A DNA stretch of 49,212 bases. It comes from a virus. Its lineage: Duplodnaviria > Caudoviricetes. Below, in pieces: positions 951-46,862 of the stretch. Where the stretch lies: the IMG/VR virus record IMGVR_UViG_3300020045_004404, positions 1-49,212 of that record. The stretch is one strand, 5' to 3'. The notes below the pieces were generated by a model. That model had not been told where the DNA came from, searched no databases, and saw only the letters and a program-made list of their open reading frames with translations. Made by a program: the position numbers and the translations under genes. The stretch's first letter is position 1. Each line of letters begins with the position of its first letter.

Positions 951-2321
951 GTGGCATACTTGGCTCCCAGAAAACATCAGTTAGAGTTAAAAGATTTCCT
1001 ACTTGATTCAAAAGGTAACGGAGTAATCGGTTATCACGGTATGGGACTTGGTAAGACTTACACTACCATTCTCGCGGCCAGAGTCCTTATCACTAAGCTT
1101 AGACCTATATACGGTGACGCAGTAAAAGTCGTAGTACTTTGCCCTAAGTCTGCTATCCTCACATGGAAGCAGGAGTTAGCTAAGTTCGCGCCTGACCTGA
1201 TCCCTTATTTCATGGTAGTTCCATACTCACAACTTAAACATTTCATAAGAAGAATTGCTAACTCCAAGTACCACTATGCAATGCTTGCACTCGATGAGTG
1301 CCACTATATTAAGAACCCTAAAGCCGACCGCACCATAGACTTTGCTACCATGCTACAGCACATGATCCCTACCTTTCACGGTAAGATTCTCCCGCTAACT
1401 GGTACGCCTATTCCAAATGATGCTGCAGAAATTTACGTTAACTTGTGGTTAGTAGCTTCACCTAATATCAATGCGGCCATCAGAAAAATCTTGGACACTG
1501 AGGCCTTTGAAAAGTTCAGATCATTGTTCACACATGAAAGCCAATCTTCGATAAGAGTAAGAGATCCATCCAGCCCGTCTGGTTGGTCTTACCGTCAAGT
1601 AACATCTTACAAAGGTGTTAATGAAGAAGAAAAGTTTCATCAGTTGATCGCTCCATACGTTCACTATCGAAGAGCTGAAGACTGTATTGATATGCCAGAG
1701 AAGCAAGTCATCCCAGTTCGCTTAGATATCCCAGACGATGACATGCTTAAGGGTGCCAACATGGAGATGCCTGAGGCCTACATGAGTAAGCTTGAGCGCA
1801 TCGCTACTGCCAAGACCCCTTATGCTGTTGCTTGGCTTGAAGAGTTTTTCAAACTGAATGAGCAAATTGTTATCTTCTCACTATTCACTAAGGGTCTAAG
1901 AGTTTTAGAGCAGACTTTCCAAGGTAAGATTAAACTTATCACTGGTGCTGAGTCCCAAGTCGAAAGAGCTCAAACCATTATGGCATTTCAACAGGGCAAG
2001 CTTAAAGGTATTGCTATGTCATACGGTGCAGGTGCTGAGTCACTTAACTTACAAAACGCTAGAAATACTTTGTACCTAAACTTCCCATGGCACGATGATA
2101 AACTTGCTCAGGCCATGGCACGTACTCACCGTAGCGGTCAGGTCAGTAGAACGAACCATTACTTTTTATTCTCAGGTGAAAACGATCAGGCCTGCTACGA
2201 AAGAGTACTTCAGAAACGCGGGTTCAATGAAAGCTTACGTGAGAGATTACGTAACGGCGGTAACCCACCTGCTCTAGTTCAACCTTCAATCGAAGCTTCT
2301 TATGAGGACTTGGGACTATGA
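951..2321 (+). CDS. SNF2-like superfamily 2 helicase
   Basis: GMGLGKT (Walker A), LDECH, LTGTP, AESLNLQ and QAMARTHR motifs. Start moved from 828 to GTG 951 because GGAGG lies at 942-946. Confidence 0.9.
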   Translation: MAYLAPRKHQLELKDFLLDSKGNGVIGYHGMGLGKTYTTILAARVLITKLRPIYGDAVKVVVLCPKSAILTWKQELAKFAPDLIPYFMVVPYSQLKHFIRRIANSKYHYAMLALDECHYIKNPKADRTIDFATMLQHMIPTFHGKILPLTGTPIPNDAAEIYVNLWLVASPNINAAIRKILDTEAFEKFRSLFTHESQSSIRVRDPSSPSGWSYRQVTSYKGVNEEEKFHQLIAPYVHYRRAEDCIDMPEKQVIPVRLDIPDDDMLKGANMEMPEAYMSKLERIATAKTPYAVAWLEEFFKLNEQIVIFSLFTKGLRVLEQTFQGKIKLITGAESQVERAQTIMAFQQGKLKGIAMSYGAGAESLNLQNARNTLYLNFPWHDDKLAQAMARTHRSGQVSRTNHYFLFSGENDQACYERVLQKRGFNESLRERLRNGGNPPALVQPSIEASYEDLGL

Positions 2322-4315
2322 AAGAATTCTTCTTTGACTTTGAAACTAGATCGATGGTTGACCTTACTGTAGTTGGGGCAGTTAACTATGCCATGCACCC
2401 GTCAACACAAGTGACTGCTATATCTTGGTGCATAGATAATGGGCCGGTAAAAGGGTGGGATATTTGGGATGGCACGCCAATCCCTCAGGAACTTAAGTCA
2501 CTTGGTGCTACCCCAGATGAGTTCATGCACATCGCTCACAACGTAGAGTTTGATTATCTTATCTGGACATTAGTTTTCGCCAAGAACTTCCCAATGTACA
2601 AACGCCCAGCTATTAAAAACATTCATGATAACATGGCAGTTTCAAATTACTTCAGACTAGGCTCTACCTTAGAGGCCAACGCTAGGATGCTACGTTTGCC
2701 CCTAGTTAAGGATAAGAAGGGCAAGGCTGTCATGATGTACACTTGCAAGCCAAACTCCAAGGGTGAGCTTGTGGCCCCTAAGAATGCTGAAGACTATGCA
2801 GCGTTCAAACGTTATTACATGGGTGACACTGACATTTTGCGTAAAGCTTATAGAGCTATGCCTCAGCTTCCACCTAAAGAAAGAGAAGTATGGGAATGGA
2901 CATTTAAGCGTAACCTCACAGGTGTAAGAGTTGACACTGACCTGCTCCATGTCTTCGATAAGATCATAAACGATAAGCTTCCACCCCTTGAGCGCAGGTT
3001 CAAAGAGATCACAGGCTGCACTCATAACAGTTCACAGAAAATGCTTGAGTTCTTTCAGAACTTCTACCCTTGGATTGTAGACTTCAGAAAAGATACTGTT
3101 GAAGAATTGCTCATGGATACTACGCCTGTACCCGAAGAGGTGAGAGAAGCTTTAGAGATTAAGTTTCTACTCGGTGGGAGTGCAATGTCTAAAGTGCCTA
3201 CTGCACTGGCCACAATGTACAACGGTAGAATCTACCAGTTATTCGATTACTCCAAGGCACAGAACAAACGGTTTGCAGGTAGAGGAGTTCAACCTCAGAA
3301 CTTTCCACGCTTCGATAAAAAGCGCAGAGATAAACTGGAATTAGATTTAGACTCTCCAACACTTGCACATGACCTTTTAAAAGTTTACCCCACGCTAACT
3401 GATCCGCTAGGCGTAGTTAAAAATCTACTCAGACGGATATGGGTAGCCGAAGAAGGTAGGGAGTTTGTCGCAGGCGACTTTTCTAAGATCGAACCCACTG
3501 TACTTTTCTGGTTACTTAACATGGGTGAGATCCCGGCCAAGTGGTATGAAGAGATGGCCAGCAAACTTTACAACATTCCAATAGAGCAAGTTGGTAAAGA
3601 GTCTGATGAACGTCAGGTAGGTAAGACTGCTCAGCTATCATGTGGATACGGCTCAGGAGCTAAGGCCTTCAGAGTTAAAACTTTCCAAGATACTGGCATT
3701 CTGCTTTCAATGGAACAGGCGACTAAGACAGTCAACCTTTATCGTAGCATGTACCCTTTAGTGGTGCAGATGTGGGATGAACTAGAGAAAGCTTTCCACA
3801 TGGCGTCAACGTTCTTCAAGACTACATCTCTATATGAAAACAGGGTAGTAGTTATGCCTATGCCTAAACCTTGGAAGGGTGTAATGATTCAACTTCCATC
3901 AGGAAGTAAGCTGTATTACCATGATACTTCGACCCGTGAGATAACATTTAAAAAGAAAGTAACGGACTTAGATTCATTAGGTAATAAAGTTATCCGCGAG
4001 ATACAGGAAACTAAGCTTTCTATGACTTACATGACCCCGCTATCTAACGGTACCCTTGTACCTAAATCTGTATACGGTGGTTTGATTTGTGAAAACGTAG
4101 TCTCATGTATCGCTAGAGAAGCCATGGTTGATTCAATGCTAAGACTTGAGGCCCACGGTTTCCCTGTACCGGGCACTGTCCACGATGAAGCTTGGGGCGA
4201 CATAGAGAAAGGGCAGTCAAAAGAGTTTGAAAGAGTAATGAGTATCACACCTGACTGGGCACGCGGTCTAGTAATTAAAACGGAAGTTAAGGCAGGACCG
4301 AGATATGGAAAATAA
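2318..4315 (+). CDS. polA: Family A DNA polymerase with 3'-5' exonuclease
   Basis: ExoI FDFETRS, ExoII AHNVEFD, motif A DFSKIE, motif B RQVGKTAQLSCGYG (Leu at the 762-equivalent position), motif C VHDE. Confidence 0.95.
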   Translation: MKEFFFDFETRSMVDLTVVGAVNYAMHPSTQVTAISWCIDNGPVKGWDIWDGTPIPQELKSLGATPDEFMHIAHNVEFDYLIWTLVFAKNFPMYKRPAIKNIHDNMAVSNYFRLGSTLEANARMLRLPLVKDKKGKAVMMYTCKPNSKGELVAPKNAEDYAAFKRYYMGDTDILRKAYRAMPQLPPKEREVWEWTFKRNLTGVRVDTDLLHVFDKIINDKLPPLERRFKEITGCTHNSSQKMLEFFQNFYPWIVDFRKDTVEELLMDTTPVPEEVREALEIKFLLGGSAMSKVPTALATMYNGRIYQLFDYSKAQNKRFAGRGVQPQNFPRFDKKRRDKLELDLDSPTLAHDLLKVYPTLTDPLGVVKNLLRRIWVAEEGREFVAGDFSKIEPTVLFWLLNMGEIPAKWYEEMASKLYNIPIEQVGKESDERQVGKTAQLSCGYGSGAKAFRVKTFQDTGILLSMEQATKTVNLYRSMYPLVVQMWDELEKAFHMASTFFKTTSLYENRVVVMPMPKPWKGVMIQLPSGSKLYYHDTSTREITFKKKVTDLDSLGNKVIREIQETKLSMTYMTPLSNGTLVPKSVYGGLICENVVSCIAREAMVDSMLRLEAHGFPVPGTVHDEAWGDIEKGQSKEFERVMSITPDWARGLVIKTEVKAGPRYGK

Positions 4316-4763
4316 AGAAGCGCCAGCACCAAAGAAACGCATTAACGGTAATAAGAAAGGTAAGACCTACGAGAATGAAATAGCTACCCAGCTATGTCAC
4401 ATATTCCCTAAAGCACGTAGGCACTTAGAGTTTCACCACATCGATGCTGAAAAGAAAATGGACATTCAAGGTACAGCACCATGGGTCATTCAGTGCAAGC
4501 GAAAAAGAAAATATGAAATGCCTAAAGTTTTACTTGAAACTATAGCCGAAGAAGGTGAGCATAGAGTCCTTGTAACAAAGGCAGATAGATTACCCGCACT
4601 AGCAATCCTAGAGTGGGAAACACTTAAGATGTTAATCGAAGTTTATCACGGTATGCGCCCTCCATTTAAGAGTGAAGAGCAGTTGGCCGAGGATAAAAAG
4701 AAGTTAAACATCAGAAATTTGCCTCCCTTTAATAACGGTAGTATGAAGGACTTAGGACTATGA
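4305..4763 (+). CDS. PD-(D/E)XK nuclease, likely Holliday junction resolvase
   Basis: KGKTYENEI...D...IQCKR pattern and position in the replication module. Confidence 0.7.
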   Translation: MENKEAPAPKKRINGNKKGKTYENEIATQLCHIFPKARRHLEFHHIDAEKKMDIQGTAPWVIQCKRKRKYEMPKVLLETIAEEGEHRVLVTKADRLPALAILEWETLKMLIEVYHGMRPPFKSEEQLAEDKKKLNIRNLPPFNNGSMKDLGL

Positions 4764-6907
4764 GCATTGTCATCGGTAATCTTAAAGCGTGTCGAGTAGC
4801 AAGAGGCGAAAGATACTCTCCAGTAAACAACGTATCAGCAGATAAACTCCCAACATATATAGAACTAGTTAGAGAAGGTACCTGTGACGTAGCTATCCCA
4901 GCTATGCAGAACAGACTTGTCATTATTGATATTGATTTACCTCGTGAACGTAGCAAAATGGTTAACGGGGTAGAGCAGAAGTATATGACTCCCGATGGTA
5001 GGATTTGGTGGCGTAACTTTGCCCAAGCTAACAACATCCCTAACACTTATACAATTATCTCTAAGAGTGGTGGCTTCCATTTATACTATGAACTACCAGA
5101 TAGTATTGACCACTTAACGTTCAGACCTAAAAGCATAATTAAAGATGAGCAGAATAACCCTGTAGGCGTAGAGATCAAGTACCGCGCTACAGTCCACGCT
5201 CCACCTACTAAAGGTTATCAGGTTCACCCGCAAGCACCGTTGGCCCCTATGATAGTTCCTATCGCTTTGATGGAGGAATTACTTCGAGGTAAGACTGAGC
5301 TAGAGCGTACTCCTGAAGAACTTCTAATGTCAGGTTCTCATAGTGCATTTTCTCAGGCACAAGTAGATTGGCTTCGAAAGAACATCCCATGGGTACAAGA
5401 AAACTGTGCGCTCACCCGTGAGAACTGGCGTGACGGTATCTTCTCAATCAAAGCTGGTACTGAACACCACGCTGAGATAGGTGAAGAGCTAAGTATCATG
5501 TGGACCATGAACCAAGGTTACTCTGAGGGTGATGAAGTTCAGGCCATAGATATGTATCATAAGGCCGATGCTCTTGGTGACATCCAAGGTGGTACTATCA
5601 TTCACTTGATCAGGAGTTTCTTCGATGAGAAGGGCGTACCTCTTTCACTCTCTGAAGTTATGGGTGGTGACATTGGTATCTCTATCTTAGAGAAAGCTGG
5701 CGTGACCTTTAACATTAGTAAAATGGGTAAACCTCAGTTCATTGATAACGAAACTAATGCTGCTTTAATCTTGGACACTTTAATCCCTAAGCAAGAAATG
5801 TTTTTAAATACCCGCACTGACACATTCATATACAAAGGTAAGCAGATGTCCGATAAGGACTTGCTGAACAATATCCTCCCTATGCTTCAGAAGGTAGGCG
5901 GGGGCCTTGGCTTTGAGAAGATGAAGAAGTCAACTGTCCAGACTGGCATAGAAATTGCTATGCACATCAGATCTATTGACCCTCACGAAGAGTGGGTAAA
6001 ACAGCAGGTATGGGATGGCAAGCATCGTATTGAAAGGTTTTTTATTGATGTCATGGGTGGTGCTGACAATGAGTACAACCGCATCCTAGGTAAGAATATG
6101 TTTAGCGCACTAGCTGCGCGAAGCCTTTCCAAGGGGTGTAAGTTTGACGCAATGTTTATCTTCGAAGGTGATGAGGGGGCAAGAAAGTCTACCTTAATCT
6201 CTATCTTGGGGCGCGGTTCATACTATTCAGTTCGTGGTAGAAACATCCTGACAGCTGATGACTCGCTTAGACAGATGCACCAAGCGGTTACAGTTGAGTT
6301 CCCTGAGCTTATCGGTTTACGTCATGAAGACCCTGAGATCGCTAAGGCGTTCGTTACTTCTCCAGTTGATAAGATGAGAGGGCTGTACGAAAGAAAGGCC
6401 GTAGACAGGCCCAGAGGCTTTCTGATGTTTGGTTCTACTAACAAGGATGAGTACCTATCGCTTGATATGGGTACCCGTAGATGGTTACCTTTCAAAGTGC
6501 CTAAGGGCTTTATCATCGACACTGCCGAAGTTGAACGTACCTTGGGGCAGCTTTATGCTGAAGGTAAAGTTATGTGGGAGCAAGGGTACAACTACTGGTA
6601 TATGCCGGAAGACCTTCTTGCCAATGTACAGGCAGCTAAGCAGACAGGTAGCTACCTTAGAGAAGAGATTAAAAAGATTGTCGTTCGTAAGGGCCTCTTC
6701 GATATTAAAGAAATCTTTGATGAGCTTACTACTACCAGAGTTATCGGAGCAGGTGGACTTTCTACTTGGGGTAAAGAGGTAGAGTCAGAAGTTAGAAGGC
6801 TCGGGTGTGTGAAAGATAGCGAGTCAGGTAAGTGGATGATGCCGGGCCAGATTATGCCTTTGCCTGTTGAAAACAATTTACTGTTACTACAAGGAATGAA
6901 CTTATGA
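4760..6907 (+). CDS. Primase-helicase (N-terminal prim-pol plus C-terminal VirE/VapE-like P-loop)
   Basis: IIDID and SKSGGFHLYY prim-pol motifs; WDG...KFD...EGDEGARKST...GSTN...GTRRW VirE-type motifs. Confidence 0.9.
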   Translation: MSIVIGNLKACRVARGERYSPVNNVSADKLPTYIELVREGTCDVAIPAMQNRLVIIDIDLPRERSKMVNGVEQKYMTPDGRIWWRNFAQANNIPNTYTIISKSGGFHLYYELPDSIDHLTFRPKSIIKDEQNNPVGVEIKYRATVHAPPTKGYQVHPQAPLAPMIVPIALMEELLRGKTELERTPEELLMSGSHSAFSQAQVDWLRKNIPWVQENCALTRENWRDGIFSIKAGTEHHAEIGEELSIMWTMNQGYSEGDEVQAIDMYHKADALGDIQGGTIIHLIRSFFDEKGVPLSLSEVMGGDIGISILEKAGVTFNISKMGKPQFIDNETNAALILDTLIPKQEMFLNTRTDTFIYKGKQMSDKDLLNNILPMLQKVGGGLGFEKMKKSTVQTGIEIAMHIRSIDPHEEWVKQQVWDGKHRIERFFIDVMGGADNEYNRILGKNMFSALAARSLSKGCKFDAMFIFEGDEGARKSTLISILGRGSYYSVRGRNILTADDSLRQMHQAVTVEFPELIGLRHEDPEIAKAFVTSPVDKMRGLYERKAVDRPRGFLMFGSTNKDEYLSLDMGTRRWLPFKVPKGFIIDTAEVERTLGQLYAEGKVMWEQGYNYWYMPEDLLANVQAAKQTGSYLREEIKKIVVRKGLFDIKEIFDELTTTRVIGAGGLSTWGKEVESEVRRLGCVKDSESGKWMMPGQIMPLPVENNLLLLQGMNL

Positions 6908-7236
6908 TACTTGAGAAAAACTTTATCCAGATTCAGTACGCTGCTAAAGATAAGTACATGTATAATGTTACTAGTAAGACTAAGTACACTGAGAATGAAA
7001 AAGTGGTAGCGGGTAACGCTTACATCCAAGGGCGCGTAGACGCTGTGGCCGACATGGAAAGCTTGGTAGGTAAATACAACCAAATGCTAAAAGAGAAGAA
7101 TGCTATGGCCAAAGAGTTAGCTGATATCAAAGCCCCAAAAACTAAGATAGTGAGCCCTCCAATATCTGGCCCTAAGAAAGGTAAAGAGGGGTATGTACAA
7201 CATGTACCTGATACCTCTGAGGACTTAGGACTATGA
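6904..7236 (+). CDS. Hypothetical protein, 110 aa, ends EDLGL
   Basis: ATGA-coupled on both sides. Confidence 0.75.
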   Translation: MILEKNFIQIQYAAKDKYMYNVTSKTKYTENEKVVAGNAYIQGRVDAVADMESLVGKYNQMLKEKNAMAKELADIKAPKTKIVSPPISGPKKGKEGYVQHVPDTSEDLGL

Positions 7237-7574
7237 AGAAGCAGACTTACCCAGAGAACTTTTCTGTCACACTTCGAAGAGAAACTTTTGACTTAGTTAA
7301 AGAGTCTGCTATTCGCAATGGTACTGGGCTTTACCGCGCACTTAAGAACTATCTAACTCTCCACCTATTCCCATACATGCTTAAAGGCGACTATGTTAGA
7401 ATCATTTATCTAAATGAGACTGGAGCTAGCACTAGCGTAGGGGTTATACTACACTTGAATCAGAGACTACTTACCAAAGCTAAAGAAGAGGAGGGTAGTG
7501 TAGGCTTATACGCTGCTACCCGGCAACGCGGAAAAAACCCTCTGGGAGGGACGGAGCCCACTGCCGCTGACTGA
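7233..7574 (+). CDS. Hypothetical protein, possible ribbon-helix-helix DNA-binding fold
   Basis: Coupled start with RBS. FSVTLRRETFDLVKESA resembles an RHH strand-helix; the fold call is weak. Confidence 0.6.
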   Translation: MKKQTYPENFSVTLRRETFDLVKESAIRNGTGLYRALKNYLTLHLFPYMLKGDYVRIIYLNETGASTSVGVILHLNQRLLTKAKEEEGSVGLYAATRQRGKNPLGGTEPTAAD

Positions 7575-7646
7575 ATAACCCAGATACCCTTGCTTCAACA
7601 AGTGAAGTAGTTGGCCTAAGATTATATTAACTACGAGGATACTGAT

Positions 7647-8036
7647 ATGCTATCACAAAATGAAATTCAGATTATGACTAAGTACGCTTGGAGCTTAGTG
7701 GGTATAGGATATAAGCTAGGGGGTAATGTACCTCAGGATGGCGGTATAGACTGTAGCGCCTTCTGCTTAGAGCTTATGAGATCAGTGAGTAAGTGGGGTA
7801 CTGACGATGCTACTGCGCAGATGATATATGACAGATTGAGTAATTATTCTATGCGGGTAGGGTTTAAGGAAGGAGACTTACTATTCTTCGGTAAAGACAC
7901 TACGAGCATCACGCACATTGCATATGCTATCGATGATACTTTTATGCTTGAAGCTGGCGGTACTGATAAGACAGGTATGGTCAGACCTAGGAAAAGTACT
8001 TGGCGTAAAGACTTAGTAGCCGTTATCCGCCTCTAA
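7647..8036 (+). CDS. NlpC/P60 peptidoglycan hydrolase (endolysin candidate)
   Basis: YKLGG...GIDCSAF catalytic Cys, GDLLFFG, and ITHIAY catalytic His; GAGGA RBS. Confidence 0.9.
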   Translation: MLSQNEIQIMTKYAWSLVGIGYKLGGNVPQDGGIDCSAFCLELMRSVSKWGTDDATAQMIYDRLSNYSMRVGFKEGDLLFFGKDTTSITHIAYAIDDTFMLEAGGTDKTGMVRPRKSTWRKDLVAVIRL

Positions 8037-8790: not shown

Positions 8791-8793
8791 ATT

Positions 8794-27542: not shown

Positions 27543-27875
27543 TTATACTAGAGGGATTTCTCCAACTGGTTTAACATCAGCAGGCTTAACCGCTGGTTTA
27601 GCAGCAGCAGGCTTGCGAGAACGAGTAGCAGGAGCAGCTGCAGCTGTTTTAACAGGAGCATCAGCTTTACCAGCTTTAACTTCTTTAGCTAACTCTTTGA
27701 TAGTATCAGCTACTAACTTTTCAGACTCAGGAGATAGTTCTACTACCTCAGGAGCGTAACTTTTCTTATCTGACACTAGTACTTGCATAGTAATTTTCTC
27801 TGACCCCATGTAGTAAATGTTACCAATGTAAGCAGGAGCGCGGAGAGTACCATTAATTTCAACAAACTTTTTCAC
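27543..27875 (-). CDS. Hypothetical protein with K/A/P-rich disordered tail, ends IPLV
   Basis: GAAGGA RBS before a GTG start; lies between the cement and adaptor genes. Confidence 0.7.
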   Translation of the reverse strand: MKKFVEINGTLRAPAYIGNIYYMGSEKITMQVLVSDKKSYAPEVVELSPESEKLVADTIKELAKEVKAGKADAPVKTAAAAPATRSRKPAAAKPAVKPADVKPVGEIPLV

Positions 27876-29677: not shown

Positions 29678-30382
29678 TTACATATCTTTATAAAAATTAT
29701 TAGCTGCCTTATTAGTGTCAGCGTTACCTTCCCCTAAAACGCTAGCACTTTTCTTAACTGCAGGTAGGTTATTACTCCCGCCTCTAATCTTATCACCTAC
29801 CGAAATAAGGAACTTAGCTAGGGGAATGTTAAAGTTCATCGAAGGGTCTTTAAACATTTCTTTGAACTCAGGGGTATTACCGAAAGCCTTGATAGACTCC
29901 CGCATAGAAAGTTTAGCCTCTATAGTGTGTAGGCTAGCTTCACCTTTATACGCGGTAACCATATTCTTAGTGCGCTCTTCAGCAGCTTTTTCAAAAATTT
30001 GGTGGCTAGCTTTATGAGAAGACTCGCGTAAGGCAATAAGCTTTTCCGCATCAGTCTTACTTAGTTTAAGGCGCTCGGCTTCAGCTACCACTTCATCAAA
30101 CTCTTCATCTGACAAAGGGCTTTCTTCAGAAAGCTCTAACTCGTAAGGCTCAATATCTGTAGCTGCGGGCTCTTCTGTTTTAGGGGGTTCAACTGCAGCT
30201 TCTTCAACAGGAGGTTCAGTACTAGTACCTTCTTCAATAATCCCAGTAGGAGTACTAGAGGCCGAGTCCTTCGCCTGAGTCGTGGCTTCCGTTTTCGCCT
30301 CTGTTGAAGTAGTGGTCGAAGTCGAACTCGCGTCCGGCGTCGTGTTCTTCAATGCTGCGTTTGTTGTGCTTTCTTTGCTCAT
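29678..30382 (-). CDS. Scaffold / capsid assembly protein
   Basis: Acidic disordered N-terminus and PYEL...LKLSKTDAEKL pattern; immediately upstream of MCP. Confidence 0.75.
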   Translation of the reverse strand: MSKESTTNAALKNTTPDASSTSTTTSTEAKTEATTQAKDSASSTPTGIIEEGTSTEPPVEEAAVEPPKTEEPAATDIEPYELELSEESPLSDEEFDEVVAEAERLKLSKTDAEKLIALRESSHKASHQIFEKAAEERTKNMVTAYKGEASLHTIEAKLSMRESIKAFGNTPEFKEMFKDPSMNFNIPLAKFLISVGDKIRGGSNNLPAVKKSASVLGEGNADTNKAANNFYKDM

Positions 30383-30614
30383 TTTCTAGCTCCTTGCTTG
30401 CCAGATACGCCTCTTCTTGCATGACGTAGTACTGGGATCTGTTGTTTTCCTGAATTTGACTTAATACGTATAGGGCCACTTGCCTCTTACCTTCCTTCCG
30501 ATAAAGGTCATTAGCTGACCCGTCTGCAGAGTGGTAAAGACCGCAGAAGGCAATAAGATCATTAATGAACTTACGACCCTCTGGGTGATCCATGATTTTG
30601 TTAATATAACTCAT
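30255..30614 (-). CDS. Bbp19-like small protein after the portal, with extended tail ending EGLGL
   Basis: EGRKFI..L...CG and EGKRQVAL motifs; 128-nt overlap with the scaffold gene. Confidence 0.75.
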   Translation of the reverse strand: MSYINKIMDHPEGRKFINDLIAFCGLYHSADGSANDLYRKEGKRQVALYVLSQIQENNRSQYYVMQEEAYLASKELENEQRKHNKRSIEEHDAGREFDFDHYFNRGENGSHDSGEGLGL

Positions 30615-34792: not shown

Positions 34793-35374
34793 TTAAAGTC
34801 CTAATGTTGTTAGATCTGGTATCTCTTTACCAGTCATATCTTTATAATCCGCTTCAATCGCTTCGATCGGACGGTTCACATCCGTAAAGCTAGATAGGAT
34901 TAAATCTGTAATACTCACGTTATGATTCACGTTTAAGTTACTATGATAGTCCCCTTCCATCTTGTTATACATGTCAAGCGCCTTAAGCCTTTCTGCCATA
35001 GTAGGTGGTGCAGGTGGGACCTCTTGCCCGTAATCATCTTTCACCATTCGCTCGAACGGGTCGGCATTCCTCACGATAGAAGTCAAAAACTCCATACGGT
35101 CAATCTTAGTTAGCAGATTAGCTTCACGCCGTTCTCCTTTAACTTGGGCATTGCGAATAGCTTGCTGGATGTCTGGGCGTCTAAGTAACTCCATACCTCG
35201 CGCCTGAAGTGCTAAGTCCGTACCTTGGTAACCCGCTATTCTAAGCGCATATACAAGATCACCCTCGTACGCACGTACAAAGCGAGCTATGCGCGGATTA
35301 TCGAGGTCAGGGTACTTTATACCCCTTTCGATAATATCTTGAATGTCGGGAGCAGTAGCTACTTCATTGGTCAT
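34793..35374 (-). CDS. terS: Terminase small subunit, ends TTLGL
   Basis: RFVRAY...A.RIAGY...G.ELL.RPDIQ HTH-like pattern and ERLKALD; directly upstream of TerL. Confidence 0.85.
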   Translation of the reverse strand: MTNEVATAPDIQDIIERGIKYPDLDNPRIARFVRAYEGDLVYALRIAGYQGTDLALQARGMELLRRPDIQQAIRNAQVKGERREANLLTKIDRMEFLTSIVRNADPFERMVKDDYGQEVPPAPPTMAERLKALDMYNKMEGDYHSNLNVNHNVSITDLILSSFTDVNRPIEAIEADYKDMTGKEIPDLTTLGL

Positions 35375-35383: not shown

Positions 35384-35620
35384 TTAACATGGAGTAGGCT
35401 GAGGTATCAAGCCTTTAGCTTCGGCCGCACGTTTGGCAGTATTCTCAGCAAAGATCTCTGCCCGGTCAATGTGGTAGCCTTCGGGAGCAGTAAAGCCTAT
35501 ACGTATCTGCTTACCCTTGATTTGCACTAGGGCCACTTTGATTACGTCCCCATTAGGAACGGTAATCATGATGTCAGTTTCTCTGGTCTGTGATGTGATT
35601 CTTCTAGTTAATACAAGCAT
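35384..35620 (-). CDS. csrA: Carbon storage regulator CsrA/RsmA homologue
   Basis: MLVLTRR...IKVALVQIKGKQIRIGFTAP...IDRAEI is the CsrA signature. Confidence 0.92.
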   Translation of the reverse strand: MLVLTRRITSQTRETDIMITVPNGDVIKVALVQIKGKQIRIGFTAPEGYHIDRAEIFAENTAKRAAEAKGLIPQPTPC

Positions 35621-37147: not shown

Positions 37148-37175
37148 TTGACAGCATATAATAACGCTGTACAAT
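37148..37175 (+). promoter_or_regulatory. Early rightward promoter TTGACA-N16-TACAAT
   Basis: Near-consensus hexamers ahead of the first + strand gene, following an AT-rich tract. Confidence 0.6.
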
Positions 37176-37206
37176 GTTGACAACACTAAGGTGTAAAGGA
37201 AATATC

Positions 37207-37482
37207 ATGAAAGTCATAACCGTAACGCGCTCCGCTCGACCTTCTACCACGGCACTAGTCAGTGAAACGCCTAGATTACATAAGGTATCAGAATCCAGCG
37301 TTACTATCGTAGTATCTTACCTACTTGAGACTAAGGACATGTTTCTTACATTCAGCGAGCAAGAATTACGCGATATGTTAAGTCATATAGCAGACAAGGT
37401 AAAAGAGCAGGATAACTTCATGGATACACTGAAAGGTAAGTCCACGCCCAGCACACCAAACGACTCAGGATCACTAGTTTAA
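37207..37482 (+). CDS. Early hypothetical protein, ends SGSLV
   Basis: AAAGGA RBS favours ATG 37207 over 37174. Confidence 0.75.
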   Translation: MKVITVTRSARPSTTALVSETPRLHKVSESSVTIVVSYLLETKDMFLTFSEQELRDMLSHIADKVKEQDNFMDTLKGKSTPSTPNDSGSLV

Positions 37483-40133: not shown

Positions 40134-40396
40134 AAAGTAAAAAGTTTAAAGTCCCCGATGTACTATACCGCTTTGGGTACCAAGGTCACCTTCACCAGTA
40201 CACTGTCATCGAAGGAGTGACCCAAGTGACCTTAATAGGTAAGAACATGTATAGAGCGCAAGGGTCAAACCACAGAAACTTCTTTACAGGATACGCCACG
40301 AAGGAAGAGGCGAAATCTGAGGTACTAAAAGCATTAGCAGTTAGAGGGCAAGACCTCTTAAACAGAATTAAAATTGTGCTGGAGACTAAGGTATGA
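40130..40396 (+). CDS. Hypothetical protein
   Basis: In-frame ATG (MKSKKF) overlaps the upstream stop; GAGGTG RBS. Confidence 0.65.
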   Translation: MKSKKFKVPDVLYRFGYQGHLHQYTVIEGVTQVTLIGKNMYRAQGSNHRNFFTGYATKEEAKSEVLKALAVRGQDLLNRIKIVLETKV

Positions 40397-40647
40397 AACG
40401 CTACCTAGTTATCTTAGAGAAGAACCGTTCAACGCCTGTACAGCTAGCAGCAGATTGCGAGTTCCATGAGACTGACTGTCCTAATCTTGCTCGCAAGCTG
40501 TTACGTGCCAATAGGCATAATGGTGTGATTATCCCAAGTCAGTATCTTGGCAAAACGTTAGAAGAGATGATTGAATTTCGCCACAAGTATGGCCAGACCA
40601 CTCAGCATACAGTGCATATCAAGCGCGCTGGAAGGAATAGAGGATGA
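40393..40647 (+). CDS. Hypothetical protein
   Basis: ATGA-coupled chain. Confidence 0.65.
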   Translation: MKRYLVILEKNRSTPVQLAADCEFHETDCPNLARKLLRANRHNGVIIPSQYLGKTLEEMIEFRHKYGQTTQHTVHIKRAGRNRG

Positions 40648-41027
40648 TAAAGAATTTTAAGCATCTCAAGTGCGCACACGTAATGCCAGTACTCGGATGC
40701 GCTGTGTGCATTTGTACTAGAGAGCGTATAATGAAAAAGACACATTATTATGGTAAAGTTCACCCGCAATCAATTCGCGAACAGGAAGGTGAGGCGTGGC
40801 TTAAGTCGCATTCTACTCCACACCCTGAAATGGTGAGTAAGTACACATATGCGTATGTAATGGAACGCAAGGTAGGTGCCAGTGAAGCCCTTGGTGCGCC
40901 TTATAAATCCTCACTAACCTTCGAGCAAGCGGTAACAGTCGAGCACCGTAAAGCAGTGTCCAAGCTAGTGTTTAAGTATCTGGCGGTATTAATAATGGGC
41001 TTTTTAGCCTACTTAGCAGTGAGGTAA
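40644..41027 (+). CDS. Hypothetical protein with C-terminal TM helix
   Basis: LVFKYLAVLIMGFLAYLAV; the start could be further downstream. Confidence 0.6.
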   Translation: MIKNFKHLKCAHVMPVLGCAVCICTRERIMKKTHYYGKVHPQSIREQEGEAWLKSHSTPHPEMVSKYTYAYVMERKVGASEALGAPYKSSLTFEQAVTVEHRKAVSKLVFKYLAVLIMGFLAYLAVR

Positions 41028-41030
41028 AAT

Positions 41031-41474
41031 ATGAAAAAGAGATCTATCGAAGTTTACGTAAGGCATTACACTGATAAAATACTTGATAAGCACGGTCAGG
41101 ATACCATTATATCACCTAACCGCTACGACAAGCGAGTGAGTCAAGGGCAATCTAGTGTAGGGGTTTACGTTAGGGCAATACTTACTTACGAAGTGCCAGA
41201 GAAGATCATTACCATTACGGAGACTCAGTTTAAAGAATACCTAGCTAAGGCTAAGGTAGTACCTGATGCCTATGTGAAGTGTGACACTATTGACGCTGAT
41301 GAGTTCATTGAGATGGTCATGCAGCACGCTAAGTTTGAAGCGCCAACTGAGCAGGAAAAGTACCCGAACGGTAAGCATCCATGCCCTGAGTGTCAGGATA
41401 ACCCTAGCTACATAGCAATGTACAATTGGGATGAGGGCGGAGCTAAGTGTAAATCATGCGGAGGTGCTAAGTGA
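41031..41474 (+). CDS. Hypothetical protein with C-terminal zinc finger
   Basis: CPEC...CKSC; GAGG RBS. Confidence 0.7.
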   Translation: MKKRSIEVYVRHYTDKILDKHGQDTIISPNRYDKRVSQGQSSVGVYVRAILTYEVPEKIITITETQFKEYLAKAKVVPDAYVKCDTIDADEFIEMVMQHAKFEAPTEQEKYPNGKHPCPECQDNPSYIAMYNWDEGGAKCKSCGGAK

Positions 41475-41698
41475 ATAAAACATTCTTTTACACTTATACC
41501 AGAATGTTCATTACCCGAGACGGTAGACTGGTAGTTGGAGTACGTGACACGTATAGGAATGGTAAGTACTTGTACTCTCAGCTTTCAAAAGAATCTGCTC
41601 CTACGTGGGACAGGCACCACAGGTTAGCTCAGCTAAAAATACCCCTTATCCCTTACTTTGAAACCATGACTATATTTGAGTCAATAGGTGAAATATGA
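41471..41698 (+). CDS. Hypothetical protein
   Basis: GGAGG RBS and GTGA overlap. Confidence 0.65.
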   Translation: MNKTFFYTYTRMFITRDGRLVVGVRDTYRNGKYLYSQLSKESAPTWDRHHRLAQLKIPLIPYFETMTIFESIGEI

Positions 41699-41916
41699 AA
41701 CCTCACCGACAAGAACGATACCAGCACCTAAAGACCCTAGAGTATGAGCATTTCACCTTTATCGGTAATCACACATACCAGCGTGCAGACGGTGAGGTGG
41801 TAAGTGTTAGGCAGCTACTTCGAGATTACAAGTTTATTTCAACCTATCACATGGGCCCACAGAATCAGAAGTGGGAATTTAACCCAGTTAACGGTTTTAG
41901 AGTAAAGGTAAGTTAG
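41695..41916 (+). CDS. Hypothetical protein
   Basis: ATGA-coupled. Confidence 0.65.
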   Translation: MKPHRQERYQHLKTLEYEHFTFIGNHTYQRADGEVVSVRQLLRDYKFISTYHMGPQNQKWEFNPVNGFRVKVS

Positions 41917-41946
41917 TTGACTAAACAAATTTATCCAGTCTACAGT
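41917..41946 (+). promoter_or_regulatory. Promoter TTGACT-N18-TACAGT
   Basis: Intergenic, upstream of the 41986/42210 gene pair. Confidence 0.6.
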
Positions 41947-41985
41947 TTAAGGGTACACTGAAGTACTAGGCTAGGGAGAAGCAGC

Positions 41986-42213
41986 ATGAAGCAAGCAAAT
42001 TTCGGCAAGGTGGAGTTTTATCGGGTAGCCATTAATACGGTCACTAGCCTGATAGAAGAGCGTACAGGGCGCAAAATGCACGCTATAAACCCTACTATAG
42101 AAGCCAAGGTAGAAACCGCTATCGAGTACGGCAATGTTAAAGAGTTAAAAGAGCTTCATTTAAAGCTAAGTGAAATGTACGACACGTTAAAGAAAAAGGC
42201 ACTGACAGCATGA
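41986..42213 (+). CDS. Hypothetical helical protein
   Basis: GGGAG RBS. Confidence 0.7.
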   Translation: MKQANFGKVEFYRVAINTVTSLIEERTGRKMHAINPTIEAKVETAIEYGNVKELKELHLKLSEMYDTLKKKALTA

Positions 42214-42512
42214 ATCCTAAACAAAAATTCAAACGTATGGCAGCATTCATAAAGTCGTACCGCTTAGGCATGGGGCTAAGCCAAGTAGCATTTGCTAAGG
42301 CAGTAGGCTTAGGAGATGTACAGTACGTTTCCAACATCGAAAGAGGTATGTGCGGATTACCGTCTAAGCAGATACACAATGTATCTAAGGCACTTGGAGT
42401 ACCCCATGCCATAATCATCGACATTATGGTACTAGACCACGCAGAGTATCTTGCTGGAATTGTTGCTAACTCCATCGTACTTGACAGAACAACTACCGAA
42501 CCCGTAGCATAA
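42210..42512 (+). CDS. XRE-family helix-turn-helix regulator
   Basis: R...GLSQVAFAKAVG....QYVSNIERG...P....VSKALGV. Confidence 0.9.
   Translation: MNPKQKFKRMAAFIKSYRLGMGLSQVAFAKAVGLGDVQYVSNIERGMCGLPSKQIHNVSKALGVPHAIIIDIMVLDHAEYLAGIVANSIVLDRTTTEPVA
42481..42510 (+). promoter_or_regulatory. Promoter TTGACA-N18-TAGCAT
   Basis: Lies at the 3' end of the XRE gene, upstream of the 42539 gene. Confidence 0.55.
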
Positions 42513-42538
42513 TTATATTCAATTTTAGCGGAGGCAAA

Positions 42539-42745
42539 ATGAAAATCTCGTTCTTACTATTCACCTTTACCATTTTAATCTTTGCGTGCGGTAAACCTAA
42601 AAATACCTCAGGTCTAAACTACCCCCACTGCTTACGCAGAGACTTCGAAATAACCAATTGCAGGCGTATGTACGTTAGTAGTTATGGGCAGCCTTACACC
42701 AATGATATGTGTCACCGTTACGGTCAAACAGTAGCGTGTAACTAA
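42539..42745 (+). CDS. Small Cys-rich lipoprotein (possible superinfection exclusion)
   Basis: Lipobox ILIFAC after a hydrophobic signal; four further Cys; GGAGG RBS. The function is inferred. Confidence 0.7.
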   Translation: MKISFLLFTFTILIFACGKPKNTSGLNYPHCLRRDFEITNCRRMYVSSYGQPYTNDMCHRYGQTVACN

Positions 42746-42746
42746 T

Positions 42747-42992
42747 ATGAAAGGTACACCTATTGCTCACCAATGCGCATTCTGTAATGAACAAGGTTTC
42801 GACCTAATGGGCTTAAAACATCATCTACGCATGTACTGCCAAGGTTACGAACTTACCCCCTGTATCGTTATGGACAAGGTTTTAAATGAGAACGTAGTTC
42901 AAATATCTAGTGATAACTGGGTATGGTTAAAAGACGGTACGTGGCAGACAATGACTGTGGAAGATCAGATTGCTTGGACAGGTAGGAACTAA
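42747..42992 (+). CDS. Hypothetical protein with C2HC-like zinc finger
   Basis: CAFC...LKHHL..YC. Confidence 0.65.
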   Translation: MKGTPIAHQCAFCNEQGFDLMGLKHHLRMYCQGYELTPCIVMDKVLNENVVQISSDNWVWLKDGTWQTMTVEDQIAWTGRN

Positions 42993-43156
42993 TGAAAGAA
43001 GTTATTGTGACGGGTATATTTGCCACGCTGTTATTCCTGTATGGACAAGAACAGTACAAGCGTGGCGTGCAGAGTGAGCAGTACGATAGAGAATCAGCTA
43101 ACATAAAGCTGCAAAATTGTAGTGAAGTAATAACCAAGTTTAACCTAGAGCATTAG
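42992..43156 (+). CDS. Small membrane-anchored protein, 54 aa (not in ORF track)
   Basis: TAATG coupling, AGGA RBS, MKEVIVTGIFATLLFLYG. Confidence 0.55.
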   Translation: MKEVIVTGIFATLLFLYGQEQYKRGVQSEQYDRESANIKLQNCSEVITKFNLEH

Positions 43157-43432
43157 TTCCTTTGTAACATGGTCTAGGTAGAACTTACGTAAGAACTGTA
43201 GCTCACTATTGATAGAGGAAGTAGGCTTAGCGGTTAACTCGTGGTGAGCTTTAAGTAGCCCATTACGTCTTTTCCACTTAGTCATGTAACGGTTAACTAC
43301 TTTGTAGGGAACTTTTAACTCAGCAGCTATATCAGAGTAGCGTTGAGTACCAGACAGATAAAGCCGTTCCATTTGTTTAGCAAGTAGCTCGGTAATGATA
43401 AAAGGTTCTTTGGGTTTAGTTTTGGCAAGCAT
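43145..43432 (-). CDS. HTH DNA-binding protein on the opposite strand of the early region
   Basis: RYSDIAAELKVPYKVVNRY HTH; GGAG RBS; own promoter. Confidence 0.75.
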   Translation of the reverse strand: MLAKTKPKEPFIITELLAKQMERLYLSGTQRYSDIAAELKVPYKVVNRYMTKWKRRNGLLKAHHELTAKPTSSINSELQFLRKFYLDHVTKELML

Positions 43433-43483
43433 CGTTTTTCTCCAAGGTTAAAGTTACTTCGGAGATTGCAAAGCTAGGGCCAG

Positions 43484-43513
43484 ATTATATGTAGTTGAAA
43501 TTTAGTTAGTCGA
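43484..43513 (-). promoter_or_regulatory. Promoter TCGACT-N18-TATAAT for the 43432 HTH gene
   Basis: Perfect -10 at 43489-43484. Confidence 0.55.
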
Positions 43514-43554
43514 TCAATAGGCGGGTAAAACTGCCACGTAGTAACGGGGAATAA

Positions 43555-43647
43555 ATGAACTTTGAAGCAGTATTATGGGCTTTATACTTAATATTAATGA
43601 TTGTCGCTTCGGTTATTGTAGCGGCTCACACACCAATAGGGATGTAG
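43555..43647 (+). CDS. 30-aa single-TM peptide (not in ORF track)
   Basis: GGGGA RBS; MNFEAVLWALYLILMIVASVIVAAHTPIGM; ends 1 nt before the next ATG. Confidence 0.55.
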   Translation: MNFEAVLWALYLILMIVASVIVAAHTPIGM

Positions 43648-43648
43648 C

Positions 43649-44089
43649 ATGAAAAGATTTCAGAATAGTACCGTAGGCTTACCAAAGTTAATTGAAGCTA
43701 TCCGTTTAGCTGAGCTTGACCTGCACCCCGATTCAGAGTTAACAGGTAAGGTCTTAGATAAGAACGATTGGAAGTATAACTCTGGTACGGGCAAAAAGGT
43801 TTACCTTCAACTAACAGAGCAACGTCAGTTTGTTAGCGTTTACGTGAAGAAAGGAAACCCTAAGTCTGCGGCTATCGGAGCTTACTCTAAGGGTGTAATC
43901 ACTTTATATGAACACTATGTAGAGCGTGCCACTGTAGATGATCTAAGAGCTTCACTTCGACATGAGTATGCCCACTACGCAGGTTTTGGACATAAATCAG
44001 GCCCATTCGGTTTAACCAGTAACTATAAGACTAAAGATAAATGCCTTTATAGCGTGCCTTACTGGTTATCTGAGTATGGTAGAGTGTAA
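43649..44089 (+). CDS. Zincin-like metallopeptidase
   Basis: LRHEYAHYAGFGH (HEXXHXXGXXH). Confidence 0.8.
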   Translation: MKRFQNSTVGLPKLIEAIRLAELDLHPDSELTGKVLDKNDWKYNSGTGKKVYLQLTEQRQFVSVYVKKGNPKSAAIGAYSKGVITLYEHYVERATVDDLRASLRHEYAHYAGFGHKSGPFGLTSNYKTKDKCLYSVPYWLSEYGRV

Positions 44090-44132
44090 CTGGAAATAAA
44101 CCTTATCGAGCGGAAAAACTAAAGGAGCACCT

Positions 44133-44402
44133 ATGTTAAACAGCAAGCTTACAGGATTAACCGAAAGAGAGATATCCGAGGACAAGATTTTTCTCGGTAC
44201 AGCTCAAGAGAATAACAATCAGGCAGACACCAGTCACATGACTGAAGCTGAGAGCCTCGTGGTTTACATTTTAAGTAACTTTACCTGTGGTCAATACAAT
44301 GGAGAGCTTCGTAATGCCTCGGAAGTTCTTCAAAGTGTCGATTCATGGCTTCAAGATAAGGACAGAGGCGGTTACATGAGAGCAAAGTCCGAGATTAAAT
44401 AA
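44133..44402 (+). CDS. Hypothetical protein
   Basis: AAGGAG RBS. Confidence 0.7.
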   Translation: MLNSKLTGLTEREISEDKIFLGTAQENNNQADTSHMTEAESLVVYILSNFTCGQYNGELRNASEVLQSVDSWLQDKDRGGYMRAKSEIK

Positions 44403-44491
44403 ACAATGGCGAGAAAATAGGGATGAAAGATATGAAGTATCACTCCAAGACTTCATGCCAACGGTTCAATTTTTACGGTTAAGGAATAGTC

Positions 44492-44653
44492 ATGAATAAC
44501 GAATTAACAGACAAAGAAAAATCTCTAATTAGAGCAGCTTTGATTGGCTTACCTCTTTCCATGGTTGCTGCTCAAGCGACACTTGATGATCTTAAAGAAA
44601 TTGATGCCACTCCAGAAGCGATTAAATCAATCATGACAAAGCTGAAGCTGTGA
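44492..44653 (+). CDS. Small hypothetical protein, 53 aa (not in ORF track)
   Basis: AAGGA RBS; GTGA overlap with the next gene. Confidence 0.6.
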   Translation: MNNELTDKEKSLIRAALIGLPLSMVAAQATLDDLKEIDATPEAIKSIMTKLKL

Positions 44654-44850
44654 AAGAGTTTTGGATTAATAAGCACGGCCAGATTGAAGAGACTGAAAGA
44701 AATCCGTGCCGTTGTTGTCCTGATACTTATGACATGAGCAGAACTAGATTTAATAATCCTTCTCGAATTCAGACAGTACATATTGGTCACTATGACAGAC
44801 CGAGATTTTTAAGAATGATGAGAAAGAATGGTTACTCAAAATTAAAGTAA
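44650..44850 (+). CDS. Hypothetical protein
   Basis: GTGA-coupled ORF. Confidence 0.55.
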   Translation: MKEFWINKHGQIEETERNPCRCCPDTYDMSRTRFNNPSRIQTVHIGHYDRPRFLRMMRKNGYSKLK

Positions 44851-44882
44851 TCGAGAAGATAAATTATCAGGAAGTAGCGACT

Positions 44883-45089
44883 ATGACATTGCGAGAACTT
44901 AAAAAGCGTATTGATGAAATTCTTGAGGTTGACCCCACCAAGATTGATGCTGGTGTTTTGGTTGATACCGAGGCAAGAAGATTTAATGCTCACATGATTG
45001 ACGTTGTTAATATCTGGGATCTCGATCATGAATGTGGCATGGGAAATATTGTTTATTTGTCGCTTGATTATTCAGGCACAGATAATTAA
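44883..45089 (+). CDS. Acidic hypothetical protein
   Basis: AGGA RBS; MTLRELK..I-type small phage protein. Confidence 0.65.
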   Translation: MTLRELKKRIDEILEVDPTKIDAGVLVDTEARRFNAHMIDVVNIWDLDHECGMGNIVYLSLDYSGTDN

Positions 45090-45176
45090 CCGCTAACTGA
45101 GTGACTAAATAACGACTTGATCGGGAATTCATTATCATGCTCTTGTCCCGACTAAAGGGAGCATGGTGGGTGTGTG

Positions 45177-45219
45177 GGCGGTAATTGCACCTGATAAAAA
45201 CCGCCATTTTTTTTTTTTT
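45177..45219 (+). terminator. Hairpin/pseudoknot followed by a 13-T run
   Basis: GGCGGT/ACCGCC stem then T13 at 45207-45219. Confidence 0.55.
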
Positions 45220-45238
45220 ACTAACTGATCGAGGGATT

Positions 45239-45475
45239 GTGACTAAAACATTGAGACAGAAAATTGATGATGCCATTGGAAGTATGTCGAATGCTTGCCA
45301 CAACTCACTTGATTGGGATGTTGAGACTTATAGATATATTGAGCCTGTTTTTAAAGAAGCTGAAAAGAAAACTCACCCATGTATGGTCACCTTTGAGCAG
45401 TTACCGAAAGCTCAGCAGCTTAAGGACTTTATCTTCTTAGCAGTGGTTAGAGCGTTTAAGGATGCTGCTAAATGA
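45239..45475 (+). CDS. Hypothetical protein with a partial RyR-repeat-like C-terminus
   Basis: KTHPCMVTFEQLP..QQ.KD.IF is RyR-domain-like; the start is uncertain. Confidence 0.5.
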   Translation: MTKTLRQKIDDAIGSMSNACHNSLDWDVETYRYIEPVFKEAEKKTHPCMVTFEQLPKAQQLKDFIFLAVVRAFKDAAK

Positions 45476-45513
45476 AAAAGCCACATCCTAGAGAGATTAT
45501 CGGGAATAAGAAG

Positions 45514-45630
45514 ATGAAATGTGAACGGGAAGGTACTTGTATCCCTGTAGGCTCCACTAAGTATTTTAATAGTTACATGCGGTGCAAGACCTGTAATCGC
45601 CTGATGGAAACTAAGAAGACGAGGCAGTAA
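45514..45630 (+). CDS. 38-aa zinc-ribbon-like peptide (not in ORF track)
   Basis: C...C and CKTC; ends immediately before the next GTG. Confidence 0.45.
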   Translation: MKCEREGTCIPVGSTKYFNSYMRCKTCNRLMETKKTRQ

Positions 45631-45936
45631 GTGGAAACGATCAAACATGCGGCTGTAGTATCTGAGTCAGGCTGGGTCTTTATCGGGAAGTGCCACGCTG
45701 ATTGCTTCCATAAGATGCACCACTTAACAGTTAAGTCTTCACAGAAAGCTGCTAACCAAGGTTTTGTTACTAGCACTGGTAGGTATGTTGACCGCCATGA
45801 AGGGGCTAAGCTCGCATACGCAGCAGGGCAGGTAGATAAGCTAGCATCGCATCTGTTCTCTGAGGACTTATGGTGTGAACGGTATGAAGGCAAGTTTAAG
45901 TACGACGAAATAAAGGGGTACGTGCGTGACACCTAA
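45631..45936 (+). CDS. Conserved phage hypothetical protein
   Basis: H.DC...QGFVTS.GRYVDR.E...A..AGQ...LFSEDLW motif set. Confidence 0.75.
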   Translation: METIKHAAVVSESGWVFIGKCHADCFHKMHHLTVKSSQKAANQGFVTSTGRYVDRHEGAKLAYAAGQVDKLASHLFSEDLWCERYEGKFKYDEIKGYVRDT

Positions 45937-46126
45937 AATAACCTGCGCCTACTGTGACAAGTTCCCATGTTCGAAGTGGTGTACTCGCTTCGGTATACCT
46001 GATCCAACTGTCAAGCTTGACATGAAACCGCTTGACATCGCCTTTAAAAAGATGGATAATGAACTTGTCCGTAGACCTTTAAAAACTTTCTCCAGATTAC
46101 TGGACGCCTTCAAGGAAATAACATGA
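45926..46126 (+). CDS. Small Cys-rich hypothetical protein
   Basis: CAYC...C...C; coupled ORF. Confidence 0.55.
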   Translation: MTPKITCAYCDKFPCSKWCTRFGIPDPTVKLDMKPLDIAFKKMDNELVRRPLKTFSRLLDAFKEIT

Positions 46127-46461
46127 TCCGCATACTAAACGACACGCACTGCCAAGTGCTACACCGTAAAACTACCCACGAAGTAATGATGCAGGCTATT
46201 GCTGACATTGTGACCGTTAAACCTGTCGCCATGCTGGACGCTCTACTAGAGTTTGAGACTCTGACCCTAGAGGACATGCTAGTACTTATCCCTGTCGCCA
46301 CTGAATTAAAGCACCCTAAGCTAACTCTCCTCATCCTTATCGCAGGTGAGTATAGCTATTTCGATGGTATGTACCGTAGACGTAAGCATCACAGCGAAAC
46401 AGGTCTTGAAGCCTATTCCAAGGTTAAAACCTTTGTGACTGAGTATCTTAGCAAGCTATGA
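46123..46461 (+). CDS. Hypothetical protein
   Basis: AAGGA RBS; ATGA coupling on both sides. Confidence 0.7.
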   Translation: MIRILNDTHCQVLHRKTTHEVMMQAIADIVTVKPVAMLDALLEFETLTLEDMLVLIPVATELKHPKLTLLILIAGEYSYFDGMYRRRKHHSETGLEAYSKVKTFVTEYLSKL

Positions 46462-46862
46462 AAATCATCTTAGATAACGGCAAGTATAAAGTCCACACAG
46501 CACAGCGGAAGTACGTAGACGTACTGGGCGTTTGTAGTGTTCTGACTGATGAGGACATATCCATCATTGCAGAAGAGACTAACTACAGAACCTTTAAACG
46601 TATAGTTAAAGGGTGCCTAGATAACCATGCGTACAGGTACTCACTAGAAAAGGTGTGTAACATACTGGCCGATGGGGTATTCACATTAAAACGGGATAGA
46701 ACTATTACGTTGTCAAGAAGAGGTTCAAGTTTTAACCGCAGACTGACGAGAATGATTAATAACTATGAGCTAGCTCAAAGGCTAGGCATAGAGTGCCACT
46801 TAAAAAATAAACTATTGGAGAATGAACGTGCTAACAATCAAGCCGAGTTTTTGGGCCTTTAA
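46458..46862 (+). CDS. Hypothetical protein, ends EFLGL
   Basis: ATGA-coupled; 41-nt overlap with the next gene. Confidence 0.7.
   Translation: MKIILDNGKYKVHTAQRKYVDVLGVCSVLTDEDISIIAEETNYRTFKRIVKGCLDNHAYRYSLEKVCNILADGVFTLKRDRTITLSRRGSSFNRRLTRMINNYELAQRLGIECHLKNKLLENERANNQAEFLGL

Follow-up and report, generated by a model that had tools for sequence, protein, structure and literature searches.

A shared C-terminal tag on replication and packaging proteins of an uncultured podovirus and its relatives

In bacteriophage T7, the primase-helicase gp4 docks with its tail on the DNA polymerase. The C-terminal tail of gp2.5, the single-stranded DNA-binding protein (SSB), likewise docks on the T7 polymerase gp5 (PMC12339929, in part). 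Mid-sized phages with a family A polymerase usually do not possess clamp genes (PMC3201878, in part). The organization of replication proteins in clamp-less phages and the link between DNA replication and the onset of packaging form the background to the present analysis of the IMG/VR record IMGVR_UViG_3300020045_004404. This stretch of 49,212 nucleotides (nt), designated the window at its full length, is the complete, circularly permuted 49-kb genome of an uncultured podovirus with a 121-nt terminal repeat. A first, sequence-only reading had noticed that six unrelated proteins encoded by the window end in LGL. Comparison with relatives of the phage demonstrated that a shared C-terminal tag is real and that it is broader than first noted.

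All six LGL endings were found where they had been reported. On the plus strand, they belong to an SNF2-type SF2 helicase (951 to 2321, assigned by Pfam/PHROG; ending YEDLGL, LGL codons at 2310 to 2318), which has 456 amino acids (aa) in the database gene call and therefore a GTG start codon at 951, to a RusA-like resolvase/nuclease (4305 to 4763, phrog_244; MKDLGL), to a 110-aa protein of no known function (6904 to 7236; SEDLGL) and to a 134-aa protein of no known function (46458 to 46862; FLGL). On the minus strand, they belong to a Bbp19-like protein (30255 to 30614, Pfam PF25181; consensus ending GL[GEDN]L) and to the terminase small subunit TerS (34793 to 35374, phrog_51; DLTTLGL). The Prim-Pol/VapE primase-helicase (4760 to 6907, plus strand, Pfam) carries the variant QGMNL, also as described before, which is GMDL in the related locus L095. 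An aspartate or glutamate residue is present no more than 4 residues upstream of LGL in all six cases, in agreement with the acidic residue claimed for each tag. Six LGL endings among 68 called genes are far above the 0.03 expected from composition (P ~1e-12), and the excess persisted when the probability was multiplied by all 8000 tripeptides (P ~2e-8).

Such an excess could originate from the DNA instead of the protein. LGL would then merely reflect signals in the nucleotide sequence where genes meet, such as a Shine-Dalgarno sequence and its spacer in an ATGA stop/start overlap or a tandem GGA binding site for CsrA, or else copied gene-end DNA. Nearly the same 18 bases are indeed present at three junctions of the window, the phage encodes a CsrA-family protein (35384 to 35620), the LGL at 46862 is dual-coded, and codon identity was slightly higher than expected in two genomes (17 of 57 versus 14.0 in G000; 18 of 37 versus 12.3 in G015). 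Four cases had been regarded as possible by-products of an overlapping ribosome-binding site (RBS), but only three LGL endings (2321, 4763 and 7236) are located in ATGA overlaps. The 14 ATGA junctions of the window comprise three with LGL, one with MNL, one with GLV and nine without a tag, while the LGL of TerS is not ATGA-coupled in any of four loci and most tags of the relatives are not ATGA-coupled either. The 18 LGL endings from five loci used six, four and four codon forms, with GGA as the glycine codon in only 9 of 18, and the common residues of tails from the same genome had identical codons in 177 of 546 comparisons versus 183 expected from codon usage, a count that includes the near-duplicates G012 and L020. 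Because the codons vary and nine ATGA junctions are untagged, an RBS or a GGA site for CsrA should not be the source of the peptide. The RBS, CsrA-site and DNA-copying explanations were rejected, being largely refuted by synonymous variation, and an origin of this kind is highly improbable. The alignment of orthologous C termini, which had been proposed together with the claim of selection on the peptide, bore this claim out: LGL was kept with synonymous changes while the upstream linkers diverged. Judged from these codons, selection acts on the peptide and not on the RBS.

The helicase ended in LGL in 11 of the 13 homologues with at least 59% identity, its own protein counted, and the remaining two, both at 60% identity, ended in the intermediates DLWI and KLWL. 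The linker upstream of LGL varied in length as well as in sequence among these close relatives, and residues 437 to 456 of the window protein formed a coil with a predicted local distance difference test score (pLDDT) below 50 in the structural model, so that the tail is predicted to be disordered. For TerS, 44 matches were found. All 25 full-length homologues with at least 63% identity ended in LGL, and so did a 100-aa fragment left out of this count; at 28 to 40% identity, 14 of 15 had two terminal hydrophobic residues, and three weak matches carried no tag. In TerS, the conserved segment IEAIEA[DE]Y is followed by a linker that varies and then by the tag, which therefore looks like an added appendage. 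LGL was also retained in the homologues of the nuclease and the 6904 protein from G001 and L095, with the two homologues found for the latter ending in EPEGLGL and SDDGLGL. On the basis of these alignments, helicase, TerS, nuclease and 6904 protein are the strong LGL cases.

The two genes that run into their neighbors, by 128 nt in case of the Bbp19-like gene and by 41 nt (46822 to 46862) in case of the 46458 gene, had been taken as the best evidence for selection on the protein. The overlaps were correct as described, yet these two cases are actually the weakest of the six. In three of three close relatives, the Bbp19-like protein ended in LEL, LDL or LNL, so that only L-x-L is retained. Its tail is overprinted on the scaffold/protease gene, and an overlap of 80 to 167 nt was present in 17 of the 19 records examined; of the remaining records, one had no overlap and the outgroup had an overlap of 11 nt and no tag. 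This distribution would fit a gain of the tail through overprinting. The 46458 protein ended in LGL in four of four copies, its stop position being kept by three different stop codons. The overlapping exonuclease frame encodes F-W-[AG]-F at the same L-G-L in all four copies, and this dual coding makes it a weak case, because the exonuclease residues alone force L-G; the constraint may come from either of the two frames. The 46458 gene was also considered as part of a split exonuclease, which was rejected because its profile does not match the longer exonucleases. The DUF2800 exonuclease itself (46822 to 47664, plus strand, Pfam) has 274 to 280 aa in this clade versus 415 to 446 aa in all more distant relatives, and its C-terminal part is missing, since the N termini align with those of the longer proteins.

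A second tag class had been missed by the sequence-only reading. Five genes of the window end in -LV versus 0.39 expected: the Enc34-type SSB (47683 to 48570, plus strand, Atlas PF10991; GGSLV), the post-SSB protein of about 220 aa (48650 to 49212, plus strand, running on through the 121-nt terminal repeat as far as 224; MGGLV), the exonuclease, the ending NALV of which is not conserved, and two proteins of no known function, one of 110 aa behind a Bbp16-like gene (27543 to 27875, minus strand; EIPLV) and one of 102 aa (37174 to 37482, plus strand; GSLV). The 27543 protein ended in PLV in three of three close relatives and its positional counterpart was tagged in 10 of 12 genomes, while the counterparts of the 37174 protein ended in TSLI (G001), GSLV (G002) and LEDL (G003). 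The C-terminal domain of the post-SSB protein reached a best score of 0.80 in an Atlas search, which was uninformative. The SSB has a long low-complexity tail rich in N, G and Q, unlike the usual acidic SSB tails, and this tail is Q/P-rich in relatives and ranges there from nearly absent to more than 100 residues. Other conserved leucine-ending tails may be further tag variants, namely, ELML at 43145 to 43432 (minus strand), also present in G002, SIDAL/VIDEL at 221 to 823 and YLSKL/YLNQL at 46123 to 46461 (both plus strand).

Outside the clade of LGL-carrying close relatives, the same proteins are tagged in another form. Helicase, primase, resolvase and TerS of distant relatives, often also the SSB and a helix-turn-helix (HTH) protein, end in h-D-x-Φ-Φ, for example LDDLI, LDSFI or xxYL. 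All 62 helicases with 38 to 53% identity, a count that leaves out 45 listed matches at 32% identity or less, ended in two hydrophobic residues, 61 of them as h-x-x-Φ-Φ and none as LGL. Across 14 genomes, the tag was present on helicase (14/14), primase (14/14), TerS (13/13), nuclease (13/13) and the HTH protein, which is absent from the LGL clade (12 of 13 genomes), followed by the post-SSB protein (11/14), the gene behind the cement protein (10/12), SSB and Bbp19-like protein (9/14 each) and the exonuclease (3/14). The polymerase was tagged in none of the 14 genomes, and the virion and assembly proteins of eleven families in one of 153 cases. In this respect, the matching endings on the same proteins of relatives uphold the idea, drawn earlier from the LGL endings, that proteins of replication and packaging carry one common address.

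Each genome had its own flavor of the tag: xxYL in G009, DFI/SFI in G010, G011, G013, G021 and G022, DLI/TLI in G006, G012 and G015, and GLV/DLI in G005, which is sister to the LGL clade. The likeness of the last three residues between different genes was 6.25 within a genome versus 3.47 ± 0.23 between genomes (221 pairs, 15 lineages), a value reached by none of 3000 shuffles. This result held when G000 and G009 were excluded, and no such likeness was seen in nine control families. Compared by eye with two trees, the tag type tracked the phage phylogeny with about four to five coordinated changes across the genes. The endings display coordinated lineage changes (FI, LI, YL, LGL) across unrelated non-virion genes. 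Accessory carriers identified in relatives were HTH regulators, a PAPS-reductase-like protein and two HNH endonucleases, with no family assigned to most of the 27 proteins scanned. Both HNH endonucleases were found in G022 alone (L244:8031-8675 and L246:207-701) and bear the SxFI/DFI ending of this genome. One of them occupies the position of the RusA-like nuclease of relatives, and the other adjoins TerS.

The agreement of the variants with the phage tree and the joint change of several genes favor a phage-encoded receptor over a host protein. The terminal peptide of each client would enter a hydrophobic pocket of one common phage-encoded partner, and priming, unwinding, resolution of branches and the start of packaging would all be brought to the replisome of the phage in this way. 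The leading candidate for this partner is the family A DNA polymerase (2318 to 4315, plus strand), since it is a core gene without a tag in any of the 14 genomes, unlike SSB, helicase and primase, a distribution that T7 also shows. That the LGL peptide docks helicase, primase, resolvase, TerS and the accessory proteins on one phage-encoded partner, most likely this polymerase, is given a chance just short of even. The -LV class, comprising SSB, post-SSB protein and two small proteins, may use the same pocket in an older register, or a second site. None of the 65 open reading frames of the window that were scanned matched a Pfam clamp family, although a very divergent clamp is possible, and no unassigned clamp-like core gene was common to the 16 genomes compared. 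In a fold search, the polymerase model was that of an ordinary family A polymerase without an extra domain. Around residues 338 to 345, behind a QNFPR motif, the polymerase has a conserved h-D-F-D-h sequence, which resembles a Gln-less hexameric clamp motif and is mostly ordered in the model, and residues from about 538 to 574 form a long beta-hairpin of variable length near the C terminus.

Several observations weigh against this assignment. The tag pattern used in the counts was loose and was set after the data had been seen. When tails were shuffled within four clades, which had been grouped before the final tree was available, the excess vanished (96 observed versus 94.4 ± 2.2; 2365 of 10000 shuffles), and since it is removed in this way, the covariation represents few independent events. 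In the outgroup G019, a common tail (FL[ES]DIL) was present on TerS and primase only, and L119 had no consistent tag. Comparison of the gene content with this weakly tagged outgroup revealed no convincing hub gene that had been gained, the post-SSB gene being present in G019, too. Four cultured phages encode a polymerase or helicase related to those of the window, and only one of them showed common tails among the genes examined. No column of the polymerase alignment cleanly tracked the LI/FI split, nor did a column of 14 other core proteins, none being above the null expectation. The SSB tail is rich in N, G, Q and P across the alignment, whereas the tail of T7 gp2.5 is acidic. TerS, the Bbp19-like protein and the 27543 protein would be unexpected clients of a polymerase, and docking on the polymerase is proposed from comparison of the endings. 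The one cultured phage with common tails is the Rhodoferax phage P26218 (L210, KP792623.1), in which DDLL ends three hypothetical proteins of the replication region, P26218_05, _09 and _15, and the helicase ends in QDLLA.

Alternatively, the tails may be non-canonical motifs for the beta sliding clamp of the host, which would carry the DNA-acting phage proteins along newly copied DNA. In the peptide QLVLGL of E. coli Pol IV, the glycine lets the flanking leucines fill the pocket of bulkier consensus residues (PMC3716654, in part). This precedent is the same exchange of LGL versus Φ-Φ as observed here and would permit LGL and LV in one genome. The clients with an identified function are mostly DNA-acting, and the host clamp is used by C of phage Mu (PMC12867686, in part). 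None of the 68 tails from other lineages matched the Gln-led pentamer or hexamer, however; Gln occurred at −5/−6 in 2 of these 68, and none of the 22 distinct tails of the LGL clade had it at −6. The polymerase, which should be the main clamp client, had no terminal tag (0/14) and no internal copy of the tag pattern in the six genomes checked. Moreover, if one conserved pocket of the host took both registers, several genes would not be compelled to switch jointly. Host clamp docking is consequently judged unlikely.

The tails could also be degrons that target the non-structural proteins to a host protease (Lon, Clp, FtsH or Tsp type), in which case the tag variant would track the host. A free hydrophobic C terminus on a flexible linker, the near absence of the tag from virion proteins and the occurrence of clients without an evident role at the DNA (Bbp19-like, 27543) would agree with this possibility. 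The acidic flanks would speak against it: D or E is present just upstream in 55 of the 68 other-lineage tails and in all 22 distinct tails of the LGL clade, and C-terminal acidic residues are disfavored by Lon and ClpXP (PMC11986505, in part). Other non-virion proteins, such as polymerase, TerL, scaffold and mostly the exonuclease, are untagged. Proteolytic targeting is therefore quite unlikely. Of the partners proposed by the sequence-only reading, the host clamp thus falls short of the classical motif because of the missing Gln, and the protease is disfavored by the acidic flanks.

With docking on a phage-encoded partner as the preferred explanation, a wider scenario can be drawn, which is tentative and rather doubtful as a whole. 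Small podoviruses with a family A polymerase would possess a private address code, with some ten unrelated proteins, the small terminase and a head-assembly protein among them, recruited by one phage pocket that would physically hand the DNA from the replisome to packaging. Pocket and tails would drift jointly; the LGL clade would have moved from Φ-Φ to L-G-L via L-W-I/L with -LV remaining fixed, and new or mobile genes such as the HNH endonucleases or the overprinted Bbp19 tail would join by gaining the tag. In any case, a tag of three to five residues marks the whole client set, its natural variants (LGL, DLI, SFI, xYL) are ready specificity swaps, and the family provides a clear example of many short linear motifs switching jointly in unrelated genes. 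If the partner were a host clamp or protease, recognition would have to do without the canonical Gln or to tolerate acidic residues, respectively.

The remaining features of the genome describe the phage. Its head module is epsilon15/BPP-1-like and the replication module is composed of DUF2800 exonuclease, Enc34-type SSB, SNF2 helicase, family A polymerase, RusA-like nuclease and VapE primase. Directly upstream of TerS, 35384 to 35620 (minus strand, Pfam PF02599) encodes the CsrA-family protein, a phage-borne translational regulator with homologues in six of the clustered relatives. Polymerases of 912 aa in G001 (L001:9-2747) and G021 (L228:9992-12730) and an interrupted TerL frame of 889 aa in G013 suggest inteins or other insertions. 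No cultured phage matched the genome at the DNA level. Protein matches were distant only and spread over many hosts, so that neither a cultured relative nor a host emerged, and a scan of genome contigs gave two matches only, with 21 to 26% identity. One helicase relative was labeled as originating from a Candidatus Babeliales assembly, which was judged too weak for a host assignment and not used.

Among known systems, the epitope sequence of the T4 gp45 clients is similar to the h-D-x-Φ-Φ endings that the relatives carry. As with the gp45 clients of T4/RB69 (gp43, gp55 and gp33), unrelated proteins carry a short acidic-hydrophobic C terminus on a divergent linker, and the tag set works like the gp45 client epitopes (PMC2988020, in part). 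Unlike in T4, no gp45/PCNA/beta-like gene was detected in the 49-kb phage, and its polymerase bears no tag. The final LGL is identical to that of the Pol IV peptide QLVLGL (PMC3716654, in part), and a terminal Φ-Φ or L-G-L on a flexible segment is reminiscent of the bacterial beta-clamp motif QL[S/D]LF or QLxLxL, but the conserved Gln-Leu start of this motif is absent in this phage family. T7 is likewise a phage with a family A polymerase in which no clamp gene was found, and it shares the flexible tail with a hydrophobic last residue on SSB and primase/helicase and the polymerase without a tail (PMC12339929, in part). The acidic tail of T7 gp2.5 binds to a basic patch, whereas the tag described here consists of three to five mostly hydrophobic residues, reaches TerS, resolvase, HTH and head-region proteins, occurs in two classes and switches between lineages. 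The T7 tails, the T4 epitopes and the beta-clamp motif each have a defining feature that the tag set lacks, and a search of titles and abstract openings in the literature, with subscription papers and supplements outside its scope, turned up no account of such a tag set for this family. Particular to this family, as compared to these systems, are the switch of register to LGL with its intermediates, the presence of two tag classes in one genome and the phylogeny of coordinated changes.

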